Shown here piece after piece: positions 2,836 to 60,422 of a DNA stretch of 64,000 nucleotides (its first letter is position 1; the number at the start of each line of letters is the position of its first letter). Location of the stretch: the UHGV virus genome UHGV-1351772; one strand, written 5' to 3'. The DNA comes from a virus. Position numbers and translations under genes: made by a program. The notes beneath the pieces are model-generated. The model worked only from the letters and a program-made list of their open reading frames with translations. It was not told the DNA's origin and ran no database searches.

Positions 2836-3379
2836 TTCTGTTACCTCGTACTGTTACTACTACTCGTTCTGTTGTACGTCGCTATACCCCGACGTGTGGG
2901 TTAATGGGACGCGTTGACGTCTGATGAGGCGCAGCAGGCAGTGGCAGCAATGACAGCAAGGGCAGCAATGGTACAAACGCCAACGCGAATAAAAAACGCT
3001 ACTGATCAAATAAAACGACAAGGAAAGTATGAGAAACAAAGACCAGTACCGTCGAGTTAACGCGTAACTCTCAATTCACATTACAGGGTATTCACGTTGC
3101 ACTTAGGGGAAATACCCAGTAATTAAATTCTTGGTGGGAGTAGGTGGGAGGATACCCTCCCACCGTACCACCGTTTCGGCAGTCGTGCTACCAGGACCCT
3201 ACGGCCCTAAACGTAAGTCCGAACTTAATCGGTAGGTGTTTACACGTTTTTAAGGAGCTTTCTACCCGTGAGCAAGAGCAGAAAATATCAGAGCAGGCGT
3301 AACTCAGTTGAAGGCTGACGGGAAAATCTACCCAACATACGTCTGTTCTAATTAGGTTAGTGGGCCGAAGCCCACTGTT

Positions 3380-3680: not shown

Positions 3681-3756
3681 TGGCGGGGGTGGGAAGTTTC
3701 GAACTCCCAACCTTCGGTTTTGGAGACCGCTGCACCACCAATTGTGCTACACCCCC
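3681..3756 (-). tRNA. tRNA-Trp: tRNA-Trp (anticodon CCA), 76 nt with encoded CCA end
   Basis: manual cloverleaf fold of the minus-strand sequence GGGGGTGTAGCAC...CACCCCCGCCA: 7-bp acceptor stem, D-stem GCAC/GTGC with G18G19, anticodon loop CU-CCA-AA, T-arm GGGAG-TTCGAAA-CTTCC, discriminator G. Confidence 0.85.
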
Positions 3757-3763
3757 TAATACA

Positions 3764-4264
3764 TCAAAACAGCTTAAGTGTTTGCGTTTGACCACCGCTG
3801 TACAGGTCGTAACGTTTCGCCACTTCCACCGCAGTGGGGGCGTCAACGCCAGCACCTAATGCACCCAGGGCATAGTGAGCACCTGAGCCTATCGCATACG
3901 GCGGCTCTACAAACACGTAACTGGCGTATTTGTTGTCTTTGCACTTCGAGGCGTCGATAACGCGTCCGTCTGTCAAAACAGCAAGTACGATAAAATCAAT
4001 CTGCTCGGGATACGTCGTTTCGAATCTAACTCCACCCCGTTCGATACCGCCGAAACGTTCAAGCGTGAGTTCTTGGCGCACGGATTGCAATGCGGCGACA
4101 TCACCTGCCAAACCGATCGCTTTCACGTCTTCACCCAAAAGCTTCCACGACGTACCCTCAGGCGGCGTGTGAATCTTACGGTATTGCGTGGCAGCACTAC
4201 GTTCTTCCACGGTGACTTGACCGTCGCAAGCTAACGTCTTTCCGTCGAAAACAATCGTGGTCAT
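3764..4264 (-). CDS. HslV/proteasome beta-subunit-like Ntn-hydrolase (putative threonine protease)
   Basis: N-terminus MTTIVFDGK...DGQ resembles HslV (Thr1 after Met removal) and has the GSG motif AIGSGAHYALGA; AGGAA RBS 7 nt upstream of ATG. Confidence 0.7.
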   Translation of the reverse strand: MTTIVFDGKTLACDGQVTVEERSAATQYRKIHTPPEGTSWKLLGEDVKAIGLAGDVAALQSVRQELTLERFGGIERGGVRFETTYPEQIDFIVLAVLTDGRVIDASKCKDNKYASYVFVEPPYAIGSGAHYALGALGAGVDAPTAVEVAKRYDLYSGGQTQTLKLF

Positions 4265-4626
4265 GACAGATTTCCTAACTCATTGCCGACCTCCTGGTCA
4301 GCAGCTACCATCGAATTCGTGCAACGCGTAACATGTTCACGAATCGCTCGAGCCAAACCTTCACGAACGGCTACCAGGAGACACTCTCGATAGCTCGGAT
4401 AATGCGCAATAGGGCTAGGGATGTGTTCCACGCAATAACCATCGTGAACTTCCACCACTACCGTGATGTAAATCTCGACGGGTTGGTAAATCCGCACGCT
4501 CTTGATCAAATCAAGTAACGCTGGCTCCGTGCATCCCCAGTCCTCCGGGGCTTTTAACAGCACTGCCAACTCATCGAGCCTGTACTGAACATCCAATTCC
4601 ACGTTAGTGGTGTTTTTGGAATCCAT
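4261..4626 (-). CDS. hypothetical protein; probable start at internal ATG 4626 (ORF extends to 4710)
   Basis: AGGAG 8 nt upstream of ATG at 4626; stop overlaps the HslV-like start as ATGA. Confidence 0.45.
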   Translation of the reverse strand: MDSKNTTNVELDVQYRLDELAVLLKAPEDWGCTEPALLDLIKSVRIYQPVEIYITVVVEVHDGYCVEHIPSPIAHYPSYRECLLVAVREGLARAIREHVTRCTNSMVAADQEVGNELGNLS

Positions 4627-5518
4627 ATTAAAATCTCCTGTCGTGGTCTGTGTCACACCAACAGGAAATCCTGTAAAAAAATAATTCAGCTGCGTACCGG
4701 CGTTTCTCAACGGGAGTACGCACCCCTCTCGTCTTTGCGAGCCGTCAAGCTAGAGGACATCACACTGCCAGCGCTACCTGGAGCAGGGTCATTCGACGCA
4801 ACGTCGTAATTCGCATTTTGGCCGCACCTCTGGGAGCGTATCCCACCGTCGGCTGCCCGCAGGTAAGTTCTACGGACCTTTCGCCAACGTCGCTCCCAGA
4901 GGCTGCCACGGTTCACTCGGATTTTCTCATGTGGTCCACGCGTCACTGATAGCGCGGGTTCCCCAACACTCGTAAGTCGGGGAACGGTACCGAGCACCTG
5001 AACTCTGGGGATTCCAAAAATCCCTCGGGGTAAGTACGATTCGCAAATCGATTTTCAAACCCCATAGTAAAACAAACTCCAGTGTTAGGCTGAACGTTTT
5101 GTTTTTCCCAGTACACGGCGAAATAAATTCCATGCACTCGAAAAAACAACCCCCAAACCAACACCCGGTCAGGGGGCTTCGAGCTCTGCTGAATCTTCGC
5201 AGACAGAAATCGTGTTTGAGCTGTGAGCAGTAAACTCCTGAACTCCGAAAAATCTTCGTGGTTGGATTTGTAAATCATCCCACGCAAATCCTCCGAACAT
5301 ACCATAGGGTTTTAACGTTCGAAAAAGGGGAATGGGTTTTACCCCCCTCGGTCAGGTGTTCAGGGTAGACCCCCTACCCGATCCCCCAGGTGGGGATTTT
5401 ACCCTGGTGAATTACCCCGGGTTCGATTTTCGGATTTTCTGGAAAATACCGCTCACCGATCCCTACCCCCTCAGGGGGGTCAGACCGAGATCAGATCTCA
5501 TAATAAGGATCGCGCGCG

Positions 5519-5614
5519 TTTTATATATATTTATATATAATATATATTATATATAATAATTATTATATTAATAAATATATTAATATATTTATTTAAATAA
5601 ATAATTAAATAATA
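5519..5614. repeat. 96-nt pure A/T low-complexity tract (possible DNA unwinding element)
   Basis: no G or C from 5519 to 5614; flanked on the left by cgcgcgcg (5511-5518). Confidence 0.8.
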
Positions 5615-5682
5615 CCTAAAGGTATTATTATTTTGATCCTAAAGGAATAATATATTTATAAATAAATATATTATACTATACG

Positions 5683-5700
5683 CGCGTGCGTACGCACGCG
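5683..5700. repeat. 18-bp perfect palindrome cgcgtgcgtacgcacgcg (alternating purine-pyrimidine)
   Basis: sequence equals its own reverse complement; sits at the right edge of the AT-rich tract. Confidence 0.85.
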
Positions 5701-5758
5701 TATAAGGAAGAGATCTTGAGATCAGATTTTTGAGAGAGTTAAAAATTTAAGATCGATC

Positions 5759-5779
5759 CGAGAGACTTAGTGTCTCTCG
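5759..5779. repeat. inverted repeat/hairpin cgagagac-ttagt-gtctctcg
   Basis: 8-bp perfect arms with 5-nt spacer. Confidence 0.7.
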
Positions 5780-5835
5780 AAGAGTATTAAAAAATTTAAA
5801 AGATCAAAAAACCAAAGCTAGAGAACTACTCAACC

Positions 5836-5862
5836 TGAATCTTCAGTGTGTGAAGATTCAGT
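5836..5862. repeat. inverted repeat/hairpin ctgaatcttca-gtgtg-tgaagattcag
   Basis: 11-bp perfect arms with 5-nt spacer. Confidence 0.75.
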
Positions 5863-6331
5863 AAGTTGATCAATCCAGCTGATCCGCTAGTACGCGAAGC
5901 GTGAATGTTTTTTTGATCGTCGCGGCGGCCGGTCCGCCGACCCGAGGGTGGGGTGGAACTGGTCGAGGGGAATGCCCCTCAGGCGCTCTCAATCGCGCTG
6001 TAACGAGTTAAACGGGGTTCTGGTACCCAAGTGTACCCCTTGAGGAGATTTTTGCGTCAAAATGCGTTCTAGAGCGTTTTACGATGGGGTGGGTTTTCGA
6101 CCCACTCAGGGATAGGGGTTGGCGTGACAGCTCGAACGACAAAATCGTGGTTTCATGGCGTTGAGTGAAAATAAATTCAAAACCCACAACCAAAAACACC
6201 CTCAAATTCTTCGTAGGAAGCTCTCTGACGAGATAAACGTGGGTAAGGGGTACGAACGTACCGCCTGGAAAGAAAAATGCGTTAGAATCGCTCTCAGCGC
6301 GTTTTTGATTTTTGGGCAAAAAAATAAAACG

Positions 6332-6351
6332 GGGGAGACTTCGGTCTCCCC
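6332..6351 (-). terminator. intrinsic terminator-like hairpin downstream of the 6362..7486 gene
   Basis: ggggagac-ttcg-gtctcccc (UUCG tetraloop) with A-run on plus strand upstream, i.e. T-run after the hairpin on the minus strand. Confidence 0.5.
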
Positions 6352-6361
6352 AGAATATTTT

Positions 6362-7486
6362 TTACAGAGTCGTCAGTTCTTTTGACGGATAGTACAGTTT
6401 CACATCGACCAAACTGTAACCGGTGGCGTAGAACACCTGATTTCCGACCGAAGCAATAAACCCTTCAGGGTCGATAACGTCAACCGAGAAATCGGAATCG
6501 AATAGCCAGGTTTCTTGTTCCCCTTCCCGTTCGAAAACGGCAGCGTAACGCCCGTATTCTGGGCCTCGGCGGAAACGAAACAGCGTTAATCCTGTCTCAC
6601 GTTCTAAGCCATAAATCACCCCATTTTCTTCGTAGATTTCAGCGCGATTACAGCGTGTAACCGTCAACAACGCAGGCCGTTGTGTCGGGATTGTTTTAAA
6701 CGGTGAAGGCCCATCGTATGTCGTTGAAACCCAATCACCGAGACTGTCTAACGCCAGTGCTCGATACGCGATAGGTGACTTGTAGTTACACAACCTGTTG
6801 CCCTCGGTGTACATCGTGTATTCGATGCGTAACGTAGTACCGATGATGTCGTTCAAACTCAGTTTGTAGTGCGCTAACTGGGCTTGTATACGACAGGACA
6901 GAATTGTACACAGGAAAGTGTGACCCTCTGTAGAACGGCACACAACTCCGTAATCGGTCACTGCCAGTAACGTGGCATCTGTTTTACGGACGGGTTCCAG
7001 GCGAAACACCTCATTTTCAGTTTCTACGAGGAACTGCGAAACCGCTTGGTTTCTGGATTTAGCTTTAATCGTATCGAACACATCACCCGCTTTTACGATT
7101 AACGGTTCTACCACGTTTACCTGAAACGGCAGCGGTTTAGTTGGGTATTGTCCCAACGTTGTAATCGTTACTGAGTTGAGTTCTGGGTCCGATGCGTCAG
7201 GATCACCAGACAACCAATACGTTAGCCATTTCGACAACGTCTGGGGAATGACGCGCGTGGTGTAAAACAGAATTTCGCCATGTAAACCTGCCTCTGCCAA
7301 TTCGCGTGCAAGAAACGAGTTGACCGCGTCGTAGGTACCGTTGCGCAAGATGTCCATACCCCCGACACGAACCAAATCACAAATTACGCCGTGTGGAAGA
7401 ACCCACATTTTGACGTTTTGATTTCGGTCGATGGTACCTTCGCGCAGCATTCTGTGCCAAACGGGTTTACGTAAGTAATTTCTCAT
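6362..7486 (-). CDS. hypothetical protein (374 aa)
   Basis: six-frame ORF; TAAAGGAG-type RBS context upstream of ATG. Confidence 0.6.
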   Translation of the reverse strand: MRNYLRKPVWHRMLREGTIDRNQNVKMWVLPHGVICDLVRVGGMDILRNGTYDAVNSFLARELAEAGLHGEILFYTTRVIPQTLSKWLTYWLSGDPDASDPELNSVTITTLGQYPTKPLPFQVNVVEPLIVKAGDVFDTIKAKSRNQAVSQFLVETENEVFRLEPVRKTDATLLAVTDYGVVCRSTEGHTFLCTILSCRIQAQLAHYKLSLNDIIGTTLRIEYTMYTEGNRLCNYKSPIAYRALALDSLGDWVSTTYDGPSPFKTIPTQRPALLTVTRCNRAEIYEENGVIYGLERETGLTLFRFRRGPEYGRYAAVFEREGEQETWLFDSDFSVDVIDPEGFIASVGNQVFYATGYSLVDVKLYYPSKELTTL

Positions 7487-31564: not shown

Positions 31565-33184
31565 TTATGGGTTCTTTAATAACGCTTGCGTTGCACGTTT
31601 AATCACGTTGTTGATAGGATTGATTTTAAAGTTCCCATCAGAATCGAACCAGTAGTTTTTCGAGTGTATCCAGTTCCGGTTTTCCTCGAGCGCTTCCTGG
31701 GACATAGGCGCGTTAAACGACCCGGTATCGCCATCGTAGTCACCCCCTAAGCCACCTAGACGTGAAGGGTGTGGTGCCATCGACTCAACGAAGGTAGGAA
31801 CCGACCGGTCAGGGTAGCTGATAGCCCCTCGGGGTTTTTCAGTTTCCCAGTCATCTTCCAGTTCTTTTAAATATAAAGATGACGTGGTGGTCTCCAATCT
31901 TATGGTCGATGAATACGTCGAGCCTCGGCCTGTAACGGGATAACGTGTAACGAAACCGAAATAATCGTTCCAAAGTTCGTAGCCCGACAAATAAAGCAAT
32001 TCGACGAGTGTCATACCGTGGACGAATTTTCGGTCAAACGTTTTAGGAAGTTCTTCAATATCGTAGAACACCTTAAAATGTTTGGTGTCTTGGTAAACCA
32101 ACGCAACGTAGTGGGTGTCGTCCAACATAATCGGCTGATGGCGAAGCCCGCGAGCTTCCATTCGGTTGATTAAGGATTCAATCCCATCGTCGGTGGTGAA
32201 GGTGTCGTATACACGACCACCTACTTCCAAGAATTCACGTTTAAGGGTTTTGGTGTTTACGCCGTAAAGGTTGCCATCACCGGCACGGATGTTACCGAGG
32301 TAACGTTCACGTATCTGGTATTGGGCGACAGGGAGTAATGCTTTTAAACCCTGGTATAAACCAATTTTGGTGTCGGTAGGACGAATAGCGTCTTCACGAC
32401 CCATGCACTTAGACCCCGTCGAGAACGAGGACAGTACGTTACGTGTCCCGTTCATTAATTTACGAGACGTCACTTTACGACGTTGGAAACCCCCTTTACC
32501 GTCTTGGATGTTAAAGAAATACATCCAGATATCGTTGAAGGTTTGTTGCAGCTTCCAGCGTACGGGGTTAGTTAATTCAACACGGGTTGCCCGGTCAGGG
32601 ATCGCCCTGGCGAGAGATACCAACCGACGATACATCCCGCCGATTTCTTCTTCCTGTTCTCTACCATCTTGTCGAATTACTAAATCGCGTAAACCCGCGG
32701 GTAACACGAGAACGTATCGACTAAGACTAACGGGACGGAATTTCAAAAAGAAATCCACGGTTTCGTCACGTTGTAGGGACTCGTTACGCTTAGGTTTTAA
32801 ATCGTTATAGTGATTGAGGAAGAAGTTAAAACCGGTATCTGCGCCTGGGTCTCCCGGCAAGGCCGGTTCGAAATCTTTTTCTTTTTCGCTCCACGTTGCG
32901 TAGCGTTTTCCAGAACAAATTTCTTCGTAGAGTTGTTTGAGTTGGAATAACGCCAAACACACTGTCGGCGAAATGATATCGAGTTTAATATCGATATAAG
33001 AGAAAGTAGAGTCTCGCGCTTCACTCCCCGTGAGTCCAAATATCTCTGTAGAGTAAAGACCTTCGGGGTGAAAGTTTTTTGTTAACCCCTGGAAAGTATC
33101 CGTGGTCGTGACGGGTCGTAATCGCGACACAAGAGACTTGTTTACATTGAGCAGATAAAAGTCAACCCAATTAAGTTTATTCAC
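31565..33184 (-). CDS. multisubunit RNA polymerase beta-prime N-terminal fragment-like protein
   Basis: EGLYSTEIFG and IDIKLDIISPT resemble the beta-prime N-terminus (DGLFCARIFG / HIELASPTAHIWF); MYRRLV resembles DLYRRVI; C-terminal GGDYDGD matches the catalytic NADFDGD aspartate triad; GTG start with AGGAG RBS. Confidence 0.65.
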   Translation of the reverse strand: MNKLNWVDFYLLNVNKSLVSRLRPVTTTDTFQGLTKNFHPEGLYSTEIFGLTGSEARDSTFSYIDIKLDIISPTVCLALFQLKQLYEEICSGKRYATWSEKEKDFEPALPGDPGADTGFNFFLNHYNDLKPKRNESLQRDETVDFFLKFRPVSLSRYVLVLPAGLRDLVIRQDGREQEEEIGGMYRRLVSLARAIPDRATRVELTNPVRWKLQQTFNDIWMYFFNIQDGKGGFQRRKVTSRKLMNGTRNVLSSFSTGSKCMGREDAIRPTDTKIGLYQGLKALLPVAQYQIRERYLGNIRAGDGNLYGVNTKTLKREFLEVGGRVYDTFTTDDGIESLINRMEARGLRHQPIMLDDTHYVALVYQDTKHFKVFYDIEELPKTFDRKFVHGMTLVELLYLSGYELWNDYFGFVTRYPVTGRGSTYSSTIRLETTTSSLYLKELEDDWETEKPRGAISYPDRSVPTFVESMAPHPSRLGGLGGDYDGDTGSFNAPMSQEALEENRNWIHSKNYWFDSDGNFKINPINNVIKRATQALLKNP

Positions 33185-33260
33185 GCTAAATCTCCTGATA
33201 CGGATTAAACGTTATGGCTAAAAAGGTAAAGATGATTTCGATGAAATCGATCTTGATAAC

Positions 33261-58422: not shown

Positions 58423-59349
58423 TTAATTGTGGGGTACGTAGCCACGGACAAATGTAGGTGGAATCCAACAAAGTTTTCTCTTTCTTTCACCATTTCTAGG
58501 GCCGACCCAATATCTGCGCCAGTGAGCGCGACGGATGTGGGCAGCCTTAGCATGTTTGATACCCTGCATGGTTTTCAAGTCAGTGTTAAACCCTTTTAGA
58601 TAATTCACTTGTCCTGGCGTGATATCTATCTTAACATCGCGTTCACGAGGTTTAACGTCGTAGCTAATACTACCGTTCTTTTTGATTTCTTTGAACTTAA
58701 TATCATTAAAAGACTCCCTGTAATTGGGCGGGATTAGCGTACACAGAAATATCATCGAAGTAGCGGCTTTGGCCAGAGATAACCATAGCATCTTTTCTTG
58801 TTCGTTCTCCACACCGTCGGCATAGTCGATTTCCACAAGCCCGTTTCCTGCGCTACGAAGCTCTAACGAACAAGTGGCAATTGTGGTAACGCCTTCTGTT
58901 AACCCGTAATCAGTATTTGTAGCAATTATAATAAACCTTCTCTTCCCGTTTTTTCGATAGCCGAGAAAGAAAGTCTCATCCTCTTTACCTACGTCGATTG
59001 CTACAGTCCAAGTAGGTATAAAGTCCAACCATTCTTCAGGGAATTTACTGGGCATCTCAGTCTCGAAAACAAGTTCTCTAAGTGCTTGGTTGGATATTAA
59101 GGAAGCACCACCGTATAGCCATCCAATTGCCAATGTTTGAGCGTGAAGGGAACGGGGATCTTTGAGACCTAACTCAGCGTCGTAAGGTATAAAGGCATTG
59201 GTTAAATGGTTACGATTCTTTTTTATCCATTTCGAGACAGGATTTTCCTTTATTCGGTTTTCTTCCATGACATTTTCAAGATGCTGAGACCCCATTTGTC
59301 TAAGGCAGTCTTTAATACCTTTTACTTTTTTACTTTTGTACAAATACAT
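58423..59349 (-). CDS. hypothetical protein with C-terminal AAHIRRAHW module; possible tyrosine-recombinase-like fold
   Basis: C-terminal KAAHIRRAHWRRYWVG...LCW...VRGY; AGGAG RBS 8 nt upstream of ATG. Confidence 0.6.
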   Translation of the reverse strand: MYLYKSKKVKGIKDCLRQMGSQHLENVMEENRIKENPVSKWIKKNRNHLTNAFIPYDAELGLKDPRSLHAQTLAIGWLYGGASLISNQALRELVFETEMPSKFPEEWLDFIPTWTVAIDVGKEDETFFLGYRKNGKRRFIIIATNTDYGLTEGVTTIATCSLELRSAGNGLVEIDYADGVENEQEKMLWLSLAKAATSMIFLCTLIPPNYRESFNDIKFKEIKKNGSISYDVKPRERDVKIDITPGQVNYLKGFNTDLKTMQGIKHAKAAHIRRAHWRRYWVGPRNGERKRKLCWIPPTFVRGYVPHN

Positions 59350-59408
59350 GGTTTATTCTCCTAAAATGGTTAAAAATAAAGTAACCCTAGCCGAAGCTAG
59401 GGTGTCTA

Positions 59409-59894: not shown

Positions 59895-59895
59895 T

Positions 59896-60420
59896 TTATT
59901 GTCCTAAAATTGGGGAGAGTTTGTCTGCGGTGTTTAACAACGCTTTTGTAATTTCGTGGTTGGTCTCTTTTAGGATGGCGCAACAGAGAGTGGTATAAAC
60001 CTCGATTGCTAACGCGATTTCTTGTTCAGTCAGGCACGGTTCGGTACCGTCAATCCCGTAACGTTGCGCCGCATATTCAATTTCAAGTTTCAAACGTTTT
60101 CGTAGTGCCTCATCGTTAGTTAAACGCGTACACGCCCGATCGAAACGTCTATTGTAAGCCTCGATCTTGTGGACAATTTCGCGTCGCAGTTGGTCGACAT
60201 TTACGTTATCATCAAGAGTGATGGTGACGTTGTCAACTAAACAGTAATGTACTGTGTGTCGTAAGTTGTGTAATGTGGCGACAGTAACGACCCGCTCCTG
60301 ATGGTCGCTAAAGCCATGAGCACCACAGAGCTTGCGTGCAACCGCGCCAGAGATTTTCTCCTCTAACGCTATCGGCGTGGCAATGGTTGTTTTCTTACGA
60401 AGCTGAATTAAAATATCCAC
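59896..60420 (-). CDS. hypothetical protein (174 aa)
   Basis: six-frame ORF. Confidence 0.5.
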   Translation of the reverse strand: MDILIQLRKKTTIATPIALEEKISGAVARKLCGAHGFSDHQERVVTVATLHNLRHTVHYCLVDNVTITLDDNVNVDQLRREIVHKIEAYNRRFDRACTRLTNDEALRKRLKLEIEYAAQRYGIDGTEPCLTEQEIALAIEVYTTLCCAILKETNHEITKALLNTADKLSPILGQ

Positions 60421-60422
60421 GA

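Follow-up and report, generated by a model that had tools for sequence, protein, structure and literature searches.

The locus studied here raises the question of what, if anything, is encoded by a gene-free stretch of a jumbo phage genome that is rich in complementary segments. We analyzed it within the window, a stretch of 64,000 nucleotides of the virus genome UHGV-1351772, whose terminase region is ~76% identical to those of Salmonella phage SPN3US and Erwinia phages phiEaH2 and Stratton and which, by this likeness, is an SPN3US/Erwinia-type jumbo phage. An earlier reading of the letters alone (the sequence-only reading) had described positions 4627-5330 as a 700-bp ORF-free stretch that might hold a structured RNA or leader element. 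The stretch is indeed gene-free, but its extent was underestimated, as the gap really runs from 4627 to 6331 (1.7 kb). What lies in it, judged from comparison with related phages, is a previously undescribed, highly folded non-coding RNA of 0.5-0.8 kb, encoded on the minus strand and conserved across SPN3US-like giant phages.

With respect to its surroundings, the gap starts directly after the ATG (4626) of a 121-aa minus-strand gene with an AGGAG ribosome-binding site, and it stops just before the strong terminator hairpin (6332-6351) of the upstream minus-strand gene 6362..7486; both flanking genes thus lie on the minus strand, in the same direction as the RNA. A tRNA-Trp gene was located by ARAGORN at 3681-3756, 0.9 kb downstream, and the same program found no tRNA or tmRNA in the gap. 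The neighboring genes gave no matches in a Pfam search, and their sole match against PHROGs was an HslV-family peptidase. The same gap is present in every relative, at a length of 0.9-2.1 kb and either unannotated or filled with doubtful small ORFs. After it come an HslV-like gene and tRNA genes, whose number ranges from one to five or more, with up to 5 tRNAs lying within 3 kb.

Homologous gaps were found in 47 phage records and 16 IMG/VR contigs, the latter recovered by a pattern from an island at 4676-4752 that, together with an AT-rich block near 5566-5717, is all that plain blastn shows to be conserved. The homologues make up about six clades and ~14 lineages with 46-65% mutual nucleotide identity across the gap, and their members are Seoulvirus, Erskinevirus, Machinavirus, Wellingtonvirus, Caitlin/ChrisDB-like phages, and the window's own clade. 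The sequences were compared by means of E-INS-i, motif anchors, and one covariance model. In every lineage the E-INS-i alignment reveals invariant 7-27-nt motifs that follow one another in a fixed order, and between these motifs lie segments and hairpins that vary in sequence and length with their pairing kept. In SPN3US (JN641803.1), the corresponding RNA locus covers about nt 300-1145 on the + strand of that record and immediately precedes gene 1. The covariance model (R1), built from the 3′ 70 nt of the RNA, has a single match in the window (4683-4752, minus strand, 86.4 bits) and also matches a further lineage, pEa_SNUABM_29. No R1 match was obtained on the Derbicusvirus phages CR5, Phobos, and Derbicus, from which the AT/GATC block discussed below is also absent; these phages keep the syntenic upstream gene (of unknown function, and called 'putative DNA ligase' in some records), and their gap is just ~550 nt. 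A metagenome scan using a pattern with 16 specified bases yielded, among the matches listed, chance matches only, none of them with a second motif. A scan of genome contigs returned 11 matches, 10 of which are chance occurrences in high-GC MAGs; the remaining one, the 'Bacillota MAG' contig JAEWFE010000254.1, is identical to the 3′ block of the window and is probably a mis-binned phage contig. The predicted RNA family is confined to SPN3US-like jumbo phages, whose genomes measure roughly 220-250 kb.

The stems that had suggested an RNA in the first place are largely as described. The perfect 12-nt complement between cctctgggagcg (4827-4838) and cgctcccagagg (4891-4902) sits exactly where the sequence-only reading placed it, enclosing 52 nt (about 50 had been given), and its pairing extends to 13 bp (4826-4838/4891-4903). 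A tgcgtac/gtacgca stem is likewise present at 4691-4697/4716-4722, and a third stem (ggggatt/aatccc) exists, but at 5007-5013/5019-5024 rather than at 4998-5014, some ~10 nt off. The two ORFs noted in the same region, 4707..4997 and 4943..5305, are also there, both on the minus strand. Nonetheless, such complementarity must be set against chance. When the 704-nt region was dinucleotide-shuffled 2000 times, only 10 of the shuffles contained a perfect 12-nt inverted repeat with ≤100 nt between its arms; a shuffled 64-kb window, however, holds a mean of 0.78 such repeats, and the real window contains several others, in terminator-type hairpins and the AT block. Because ~0.8 are expected per shuffled window and several others are present, the 12-nt repeat is suggestive but not decisive, and the case therefore rests on comparative data.

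These data are richest for the 3′ domain (window 4673-4914, RNA sense being the minus strand), for which 19 distinct sequences were aligned and 52 pairs in 8 helices were taken from RNAalifold folds, with two hairpins added by eye. RNAalifold recovers the stem of the sequence-only reading, the 3′ hairpin, and long-range junction pairs. The features of this domain are as follows.

4688 to 4725, minus strand: P1, the 3′-terminal hairpin, which holds the tgcgtac/gtacgca stem (R1 match, covariation)
4723 to 4749, minus strand: invariant 27-nt block CUUGrCGGCUCGsAAAGACGAGAGGGG (RNA sense)
4742 to 4745, minus strand: 3′ strand ACGG of Ja, which pairs with CCGU at 4908-4911 and closes a multi-helix junction
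4765 to 4786, minus strand: P3, in the window's version CUGCU CCAG GUAGCG CUGG CAG
4794 to 4806, minus strand: P4, hairpin CGACG-UUG-CGUCG
4856 to 4876, minus strand: P5a, a hairpin inside P5 with the near-invariant loop GAACUUACC (4862-4870)
4891 to 4903 (5′ arm, RNA sense) and 4826 to 4838 (3′ arm), minus strand: P5, the 12-nt complement of the sequence-only reading
4903 to 4912, minus strand: conserved ACCGUGGCAG segment, with the 5′ strands of Ja (4908-4911) and Jb (4905-4907)

Overall, 93.5% of the cells in these helices are paired, versus 35-47% when the 3′ partners are slid by 1-3 columns and 83.9% after shuffling, and 24 pairs show changes on both sides, versus 6-8 slid and 15.8 shuffled; the covariation score of 0.357 compares with 0.06-0.09 on sliding and 0.179 on shuffling, and 0 of 500 shuffles attained it, all of these counts ignoring phylogeny among sequences that share descent. 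Specifically, P1 has compensatory changes in 8 of its 14 pairs, with 98.9% of cells paired, and its tetraloop (4705-4708) is of the GNRA type, reading GAGA in the window (RNA sense) and GAGA, GUGA, GCGA, or GGGA across 16 distinct sequences. In P5, compensatory changes affect 6 of 8 conserved pairs and 97.4% of cells are paired, with pair types such as U-A 9 / C-G 8 at one pair and A-U 11 / U-A 5 / G-C 3 at another. Compensatory changes in homologous loci were the test that the sequence-only reading had itself named, and the outcome is positive, in divergent phages, for both the 12-nt stem and the 4691-4722 hairpin.

The remaining helices of the domain display the same pattern. P5a has compensatory changes in 5 of 7 pairs, and its loop motif is kept in all clades but Wellingtonvirus. 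All cells of P4 (100%) are paired, with G-U/A-U/G-C and G-C/U-G variation, and P3 covaries among the other clades (GUCUGCG/CGCAGAC, CCCAGCG/CGCUGGG, and UACACGG/CCGUGUA). A further hairpin, P2, is found in most clades and is lacking in the window. P5, P4, and P3 are enclosed by the junction that Ja and Jb form. In Ja (CCGU/RCGG) one position varies, as U-G in 9 sequences, U-A in 6, and C-G in 3, and the other 3 pairs are invariant; Jb joins GGC at 4905-4907 to GCC at 4820-4822 and occurs as C-G in 14 cases, U-A in 4, and U-G in 1. The block at 4723-4749, which contains the small invariant hairpin Pe (4728-4731/4738-4741), is near-identical in all lineages, whereas its flanks are only about 50% identical.

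In terms of strand, the 943 paired cells include 131 G·U and only 8 A·C combinations, and because G·U outnumbers A·C in this way, the fold is assigned to the minus strand. The same alignment folds to -50.8 kcal/mol in the minus sense and -25.4 kcal/mol in the plus sense with RNAalifold, and for the window sequence the minimum free energy is -340.8 kcal/mol (z = -6.3) on the minus versus -281.9 kcal/mol (z = -3.3) on the plus strand. Hallmarks of RNA are also evident in the P1 loop, which is always GNRA, and in several invariant G·U pairs. The earlier description is to be corrected on these points: the RNA is on the minus strand, and it is much larger than the local set of stems.

A coding role for the gap finds no support in tblastn searches against the loci of other clades, in which none of its ORFs (4707..4997, 4943..5305, 6008..6319, and all others) shows conservation at the protein level; their best E value is 0.002, for short pieces, compared with 3e-27 for the HslV-like neighbor in the same search. 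Throughout the gap alignments there are also indels whose lengths are not divisible by three. A small-peptide reading of the invariant block was likewise considered and was rejected on inspection of the alignments, since single-nucleotide indels put the SPN3US clade and L013 out of frame.

Beyond the 3′ domain, the conserved core of the RNA reaches to 5180, and further structure is predicted 5′ of it, as listed here.

4671 to 4682, minus strand: A/U-rich UUUUUUUACAG tail directly after P1
4683 to 5180, minus strand: conserved RNA core (motif chain, covariation, folding z = -5.29)
4995 to 5003, minus strand: UUCAGGU, an invariant single-stranded motif
5081 to 5092, minus strand: conserved 12-nt hairpin loop CAGCCUAACACU
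5102 to 5146, minus strand: Pa/P8, a long hairpin in which the invariant CUUUUUCGAG strand pairs with ..GACAAAG
5148 to 5178, minus strand: P7, a G+C-rich hairpin directly 5′ of a U-run, with an intrinsic-terminator-like shape
5181 to ~5450, minus strand: clade-specific 5′ extension, predicted to be structured (folding z = -4.31)

Read in the RNA sense, from 5180 to 4683, the core begins with P7, Pa/P8, the CAGCCUAACACU hairpin, a clade-specific insert, UUCAGGU, and variable hairpins, and continues with the Ja/Jb junction holding P5, P4, and P3, the invariant block, P1, GCUGA, and the A/U-rich tail. It measures ~500 nt in the window and shrinks to ~370-400 nt in Machinavirus. The arms of Pa/P8 were aligned independently of structure, via the invariant CUUUUUCGAG and GACAAAG motifs, and 87.2% of their cells pair, compared with 33-54% for slid partners; covariation scores 0.33 here, against about 0.1, and none of 500 shuffles scored as high. 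The P7 position carries a 6-10 bp hairpin in every lineage, with a different sequence each time. The 5′ extension varies between clades in both length and sequence, and comparison with the window's 88%-identical relative offers too few substitutions for covariation; the RNA probably extends from the core to about 5450.

At the other end, a WUUUUUUACRG motif follows P1 and recurs near the 5′ side in most lineages. The A/U-rich tail may be the 3′ end or terminator tail of the RNA, a processing site, or the promoter of the next operon. Against UUUUUUACRG as a promoter stands its lack of enrichment elsewhere in the window (5 matches versus 4.7 expected), and sigma-70 promoter scans gave background level only.

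Natural variants provide a further view of the architecture. In pEa_SNUABM_6, a 138-nt deletion between TAGCC repeats has removed P5 and P4, and at least that part of the RNA is therefore dispensable for propagation. In Kwan/Wellington, a 613-nt cassette takes the place of P2; it carries a co-oriented HNH endonuclease gene and is missing from a 98%-identical contig and from most members. The candidate RNA is thus modular: its core is conserved, and its peripheral segments lengthen, shorten, or are exchanged from one clade to the next.

Does it belong to a family already known? An Rfam scan of the whole window at gathering thresholds detected only the tRNA-Trp, and Rfam 15 scans returned nothing but tRNAs for 4400-6400 (E≤10) and for five homologous loci (E≤1). 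Because there is no Rfam 15 match, membership is excluded for GOLLD, ROOL, group I/II introns, HEARO, RNase P, 6S, and tmRNA, as well as for Y-RNA-like families and known leaders. A description of such an RNA was not found in the literature either. Known bacterial or phage RNAs that exceed 500 nt and fold elaborately are a handful, namely rRNAs, RNase P, group I/II introns, OLE, GOLLD, ROOL, and raiA, and the functions of GOLLD and ROOL are unknown.

The closest resemblance is to GOLLD (RF01998), which is also large (>500 nt), multi-domain, supported by covariation, phage- or prophage-encoded, and usually located beside tRNA genes. Its layout of a conserved 3′ and a variable 5′ part in a tRNA neighborhood is present here too, although these shared features (tRNA neighbors, size, and 3′/5′ layout) are contextual and do not define homology. 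The new RNA differs in that it lacks a covariance-model match even at E≤10, in that its phages are nucleus-forming jumbo phages of Enterobacterales, and in that it adjoins an AT-rich, GATC-dense DNA element. ROOL (RF03087) is likewise an ornate phage- or prophage-encoded RNA of ~600 nt near tRNA islands, and a point of comparison is that a natural isolate with the new RNA, pEa_SNUABM_6, carries a domain deletion; however, there is no covariance-model match, and the motifs are unrelated. A homo-oligomeric cage made of RNA alone is a further mark of GOLLD and ROOL. Group I introns with homing-endonuclease ORFs share a modular build with a conserved core and variable peripheral hairpins, and the HNH ORF of Kwan/Wellington lies inside a peripheral hairpin on the same strand. 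Unlike group I/II introns (RF00028, RF00029, and relatives), however, the new RNA has no Rfam match, splits no ORF, and lacks flanking exons, being bordered instead by the terminator/AT block and an intergenic A/U-rich spacer.

We consider it likely that the locus encodes a stand-alone, modular, large structured non-coding RNA, a discrete molecule acting in trans, the details of this picture being less certain. Such an RNA would either have a promoter of its own or be released from a longer precursor by cleavage at the flanking A/U-rich sites, and it would act during infection as a compact folded RNA or RNA-protein particle, with the invariant loops and strands serving as contact surfaces for a partner that could be a protein, an RNA, or copies of itself. 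This proposed mode is modeled by analogy on thinking about GOLLD and ROOL, which would be the nearest functional analogues.

The main competing explanation is that the sequence forms a long 5′ leader or attenuator of the downstream operon of small genes, HslV-like peptidase, and tRNAs, with P7 and its U-run as a regulated terminator and the 3′ domain controlling read-through, processing, or stability of the operon transcript. It has points in its favor, since the RNA lies directly upstream on the operon's strand, P1 ends 40-60 nt before the first downstream start codon in all of the phages, P7 is shaped like a canonical terminator, and the U-run has an alternative downstream partner in Pa (AAAG). 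The terminator-like P7 and U-run lie in the middle of the RNA, so that the locus could yield two RNAs or be an attenuator. We nonetheless regard a leader as unlikely. The first downstream gene differs in almost every clade: its product is 121 aa long in the window and 191 aa long in Proteus phage 7, SPN3US has an HslV-like gene, Kwan has gp292, and pEa_SNUABM_6 has a 60-aa ORF. For this reason the RNA is not a leader specific to the next gene, and we do not take it to regulate any single gene downstream. The structured RNA of the sequence-only reading is supported, with this correction. With its 500-900 nt, multi-helix junction, and invariant loops, the RNA moreover goes far beyond known attenuators, an A/U-rich motif that recurs at the 5′ side stands between P1 and the operon, and no cis-regulatory family of Rfam is matched.

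A second competitor arises from the DNA next to the RNA. Immediately 5′ of it, positions 5519-5690 are the only stretch of >80% AT in the 64 kb. Invariant GATC-containing motifs flank it on both sides, as do runs of alternating CG/CA, among them a 20-bp palindrome at 5682-5701. Nowhere else in the window are GATC sites as dense as around this block, with 14 in 535 bp where about 1.6 would be expected, and 5700-6331 again holds a chain of conserved motifs and covarying hairpins. The element looks like a replication-origin or pac-type region, and many relatives' GenBank records begin or end in the gap. On this basis the folds might belong to an origin or packaging region, either as minus-strand ssDNA of the sso/G4 type or as an origin-associated primer or R-loop RNA. 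Folded DNA tolerates G·T pairs, so the asymmetry of 131 to 8 fits RNA or same-strand ssDNA alike.

Several observations make this improbable. The AT block is upstream in the RNA sense, and the RNA is therefore transcribed away from it, the opposite of ColE1 RNA II; the latter is also a structured RNA of several hundred nucleotides beside a putative origin-like AT-rich region, but the origin status of the present block is only inferred, and neither an RNA I-type antisense partner nor an RNase H-type hybrid site is evident here. GNRA tetraloops and invariant G·U pairs are hallmarks of RNA, and size favors RNA as well, as a single-strand origin of 0.5-0.8 kb would to our knowledge be unprecedented. 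GC skew, in itself uninformative on an origin, shows no switch at the gap, and the absence of both RNA and AT/GATC block from Derbicusvirus shows joint loss and not a role. Finally, chance complementarity without function in decaying, non-coding, or pseudogenized DNA is a reading that we dismiss, for although a 12-nt inverted repeat is not rare at 64 kb and the ORFs of the gap are unconvincing, it is refuted by the 3′ domain covariation, the G·U strand asymmetry, and the Pa/P8 pairing, and has against it the invariant 9-27-nt motifs and compensatory changes across ~50%-identical lineages, the wide failure of slid and shuffled controls, and folding z-scores of -4.3 to -6.3.

Returning to the discrete, trans-acting RNA, we can tentatively go further and imagine a new class of ornate RNA in enterobacterial nucleus-forming jumbo phages, although we hold this bolder version with considerably more doubt. 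The RNA would be a self-folding particle made during infection, possibly self-assembling or catalytic, whose loops would engage the translation/tRNA machinery or a phage protein; the loops in question would be GAACUUACC, CAGCCUAACACU, the 27-nt 3′ strand, and the anti-16S-like GGAGGUGAUC, which is present in most lineages. A functional link between the RNA and the neighboring AT-rich, GATC-dense element, with its likeness to an origin or pac site, is also conceivable.

For the biology of these phages, the analysis flags the whole 1.7-kb gap, which current GenBank records leave unannotated or fill with spurious small ORFs. The gap seems instead to be densely packed with nucleic-acid elements acting in cis and in trans, and the replication origin of SPN3US-like phages may be one of them. 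SPN3US is a model for giant-phage head assembly and Asesino is a nucleus-forming phage; since the group is well studied and genetically tractable, expression, essentiality, partners, and three-dimensional structure of the RNA are directly testable, and the deletion in pEa_SNUABM_6 and the insertion in Kwan/Wellington are ready entry points for experiments. Each of the few known RNAs of this size and complexity has opened new biology or new structural principles, and the RNA described here is a new candidate among the rare large "ornate" RNAs of phages.

Downstream of the predicted structured RNA, the window encodes an HslV-family (proteasome-like) peptidase on the minus strand (3764-4264; PHROG 1040, E = 1.5e-35), directly followed by tRNA-Trp. 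Between the RNA and this peptidase gene sits a 121-aa gene (4261-4626) that is absent from SPN3US, and for which no family match was found. Further features of the window are as follows.

Other gene-poor gaps (0.5-0.9 kb) and noncoding elements of the window
2836-3379: gene-poor gap
32636-33260: gene-poor gap
58554-59408: gene-poor gap
59895-60422: gene-poor gap
5494-5705: AT-rich block with bracketing motifs
5682-5701: 20-bp palindrome
5894-5902: mini-hairpin CGCGAAGCG

The gap at 2836-3379 corresponds to the position of extra tRNA genes in relatives; ARAGORN found no tRNA genes there in the window. With respect to the AT-rich block, its core (5519-5690) is the sole stretch of the 64-kb window exceeding 80% AT. 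It is flanked on one side by GATCTCnTAATAAGGATCrCGCGCG and on the opposite side by AAAAGATCCTnnAGGAA...GCGTGCGTACGCACGCGTATAAGGAA, both of which are invariant across clades, and the small GC palindromes within the AT run vary in sequence by lineage (ACCTAAAGGT, CCCTACGGG, ATCTAAAGAT). GATC occurs 14 times in 5380-5915 versus ~1.6 expected. The block is a candidate for an origin or a pac-type element.

Conserved motifs and covarying hairpins also follow one another through the right half of the gene-free gap (5700-6331). For example, the hairpin at 5829-5856 reads CTGAATCTTCA-GTGTG-TGAAGATTCAG in the window and GTAACCGACA-GTGTG-TGTCGGTTAC in SPN3US, and GAACCCAAGTGTACyGGGT is another conserved element of this region, as is the mini-hairpin at 5894-5902. 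The ORF at 6008..6319 lacks conservation. These elements could represent a second RNA or DNA elements.

In terms of database records, 'hypothetical protein' CDSs overlie the conserved RNA in GenBank entries for Huxley (gp278), Asesino (gp288/gp289), Kwan (gp289/gp290) and several SPFM phages, and these are probably spurious gene calls. The 3′ RNA block of a contig deposited as 'MAG: Bacillota bacterium' (JAEWFE010000254.1, L163) is identical to that of the window (86.4 bits with R1, the covariance model of the 3′ 70 nt), and this contig is almost certainly a jumbo-phage sequence mis-binned into a Bacillota MAG.

Within the RNA itself, the P2 hairpin is present in most relatives (e.g. L008 113-135, L018 and L154) and absent from the window. 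In relatives, its 3′ strand and linker read GGAGGUGAUC, a perfect 10-nt complement of the 16S rRNA 3′ end (the anti-SD sequence). This sequence has no conserved ORF after it; it may mark a point of contact with the ribosome, or the match may be coincidental. The window RNA also carries three ACUUAC-containing loops, at 4862-4870 (loop GAACUUACC), 4965-4972 and 5031-5038. The invariant loop of this type reads ACUUACCUG, the same as the 5′-splice-site-binding end of U1 snRNA; this match is probably coincidental.

Natural variants of the RNA carry an insertion or a deletion. In Erwinia phages Kwan (L003) and Wellington (L025), a 613-nt HNH endonuclease gene cassette lies within the RNA gene and takes the place of P2.

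L003 1205-1714, same strand as the RNA: HNH cassette locus

A 98%-identical contig (L026) lacks the cassette. Apparently, a mobile endonuclease has inserted itself into one of the peripheral hairpins of a structured RNA. Relative to L004, Erwinia phage pEa_SNUABM_6 (L006) has lost 138 nt between direct repeats of TAGCC, a deletion that takes out P4, half of P3 and the P5 domain, the latter containing the 12-nt stem noted in the sequence-only reading. Because this deletion removes it, the P5 domain, at least, is dispensable for propagation of the pEa_SNUABM_6 isolate.
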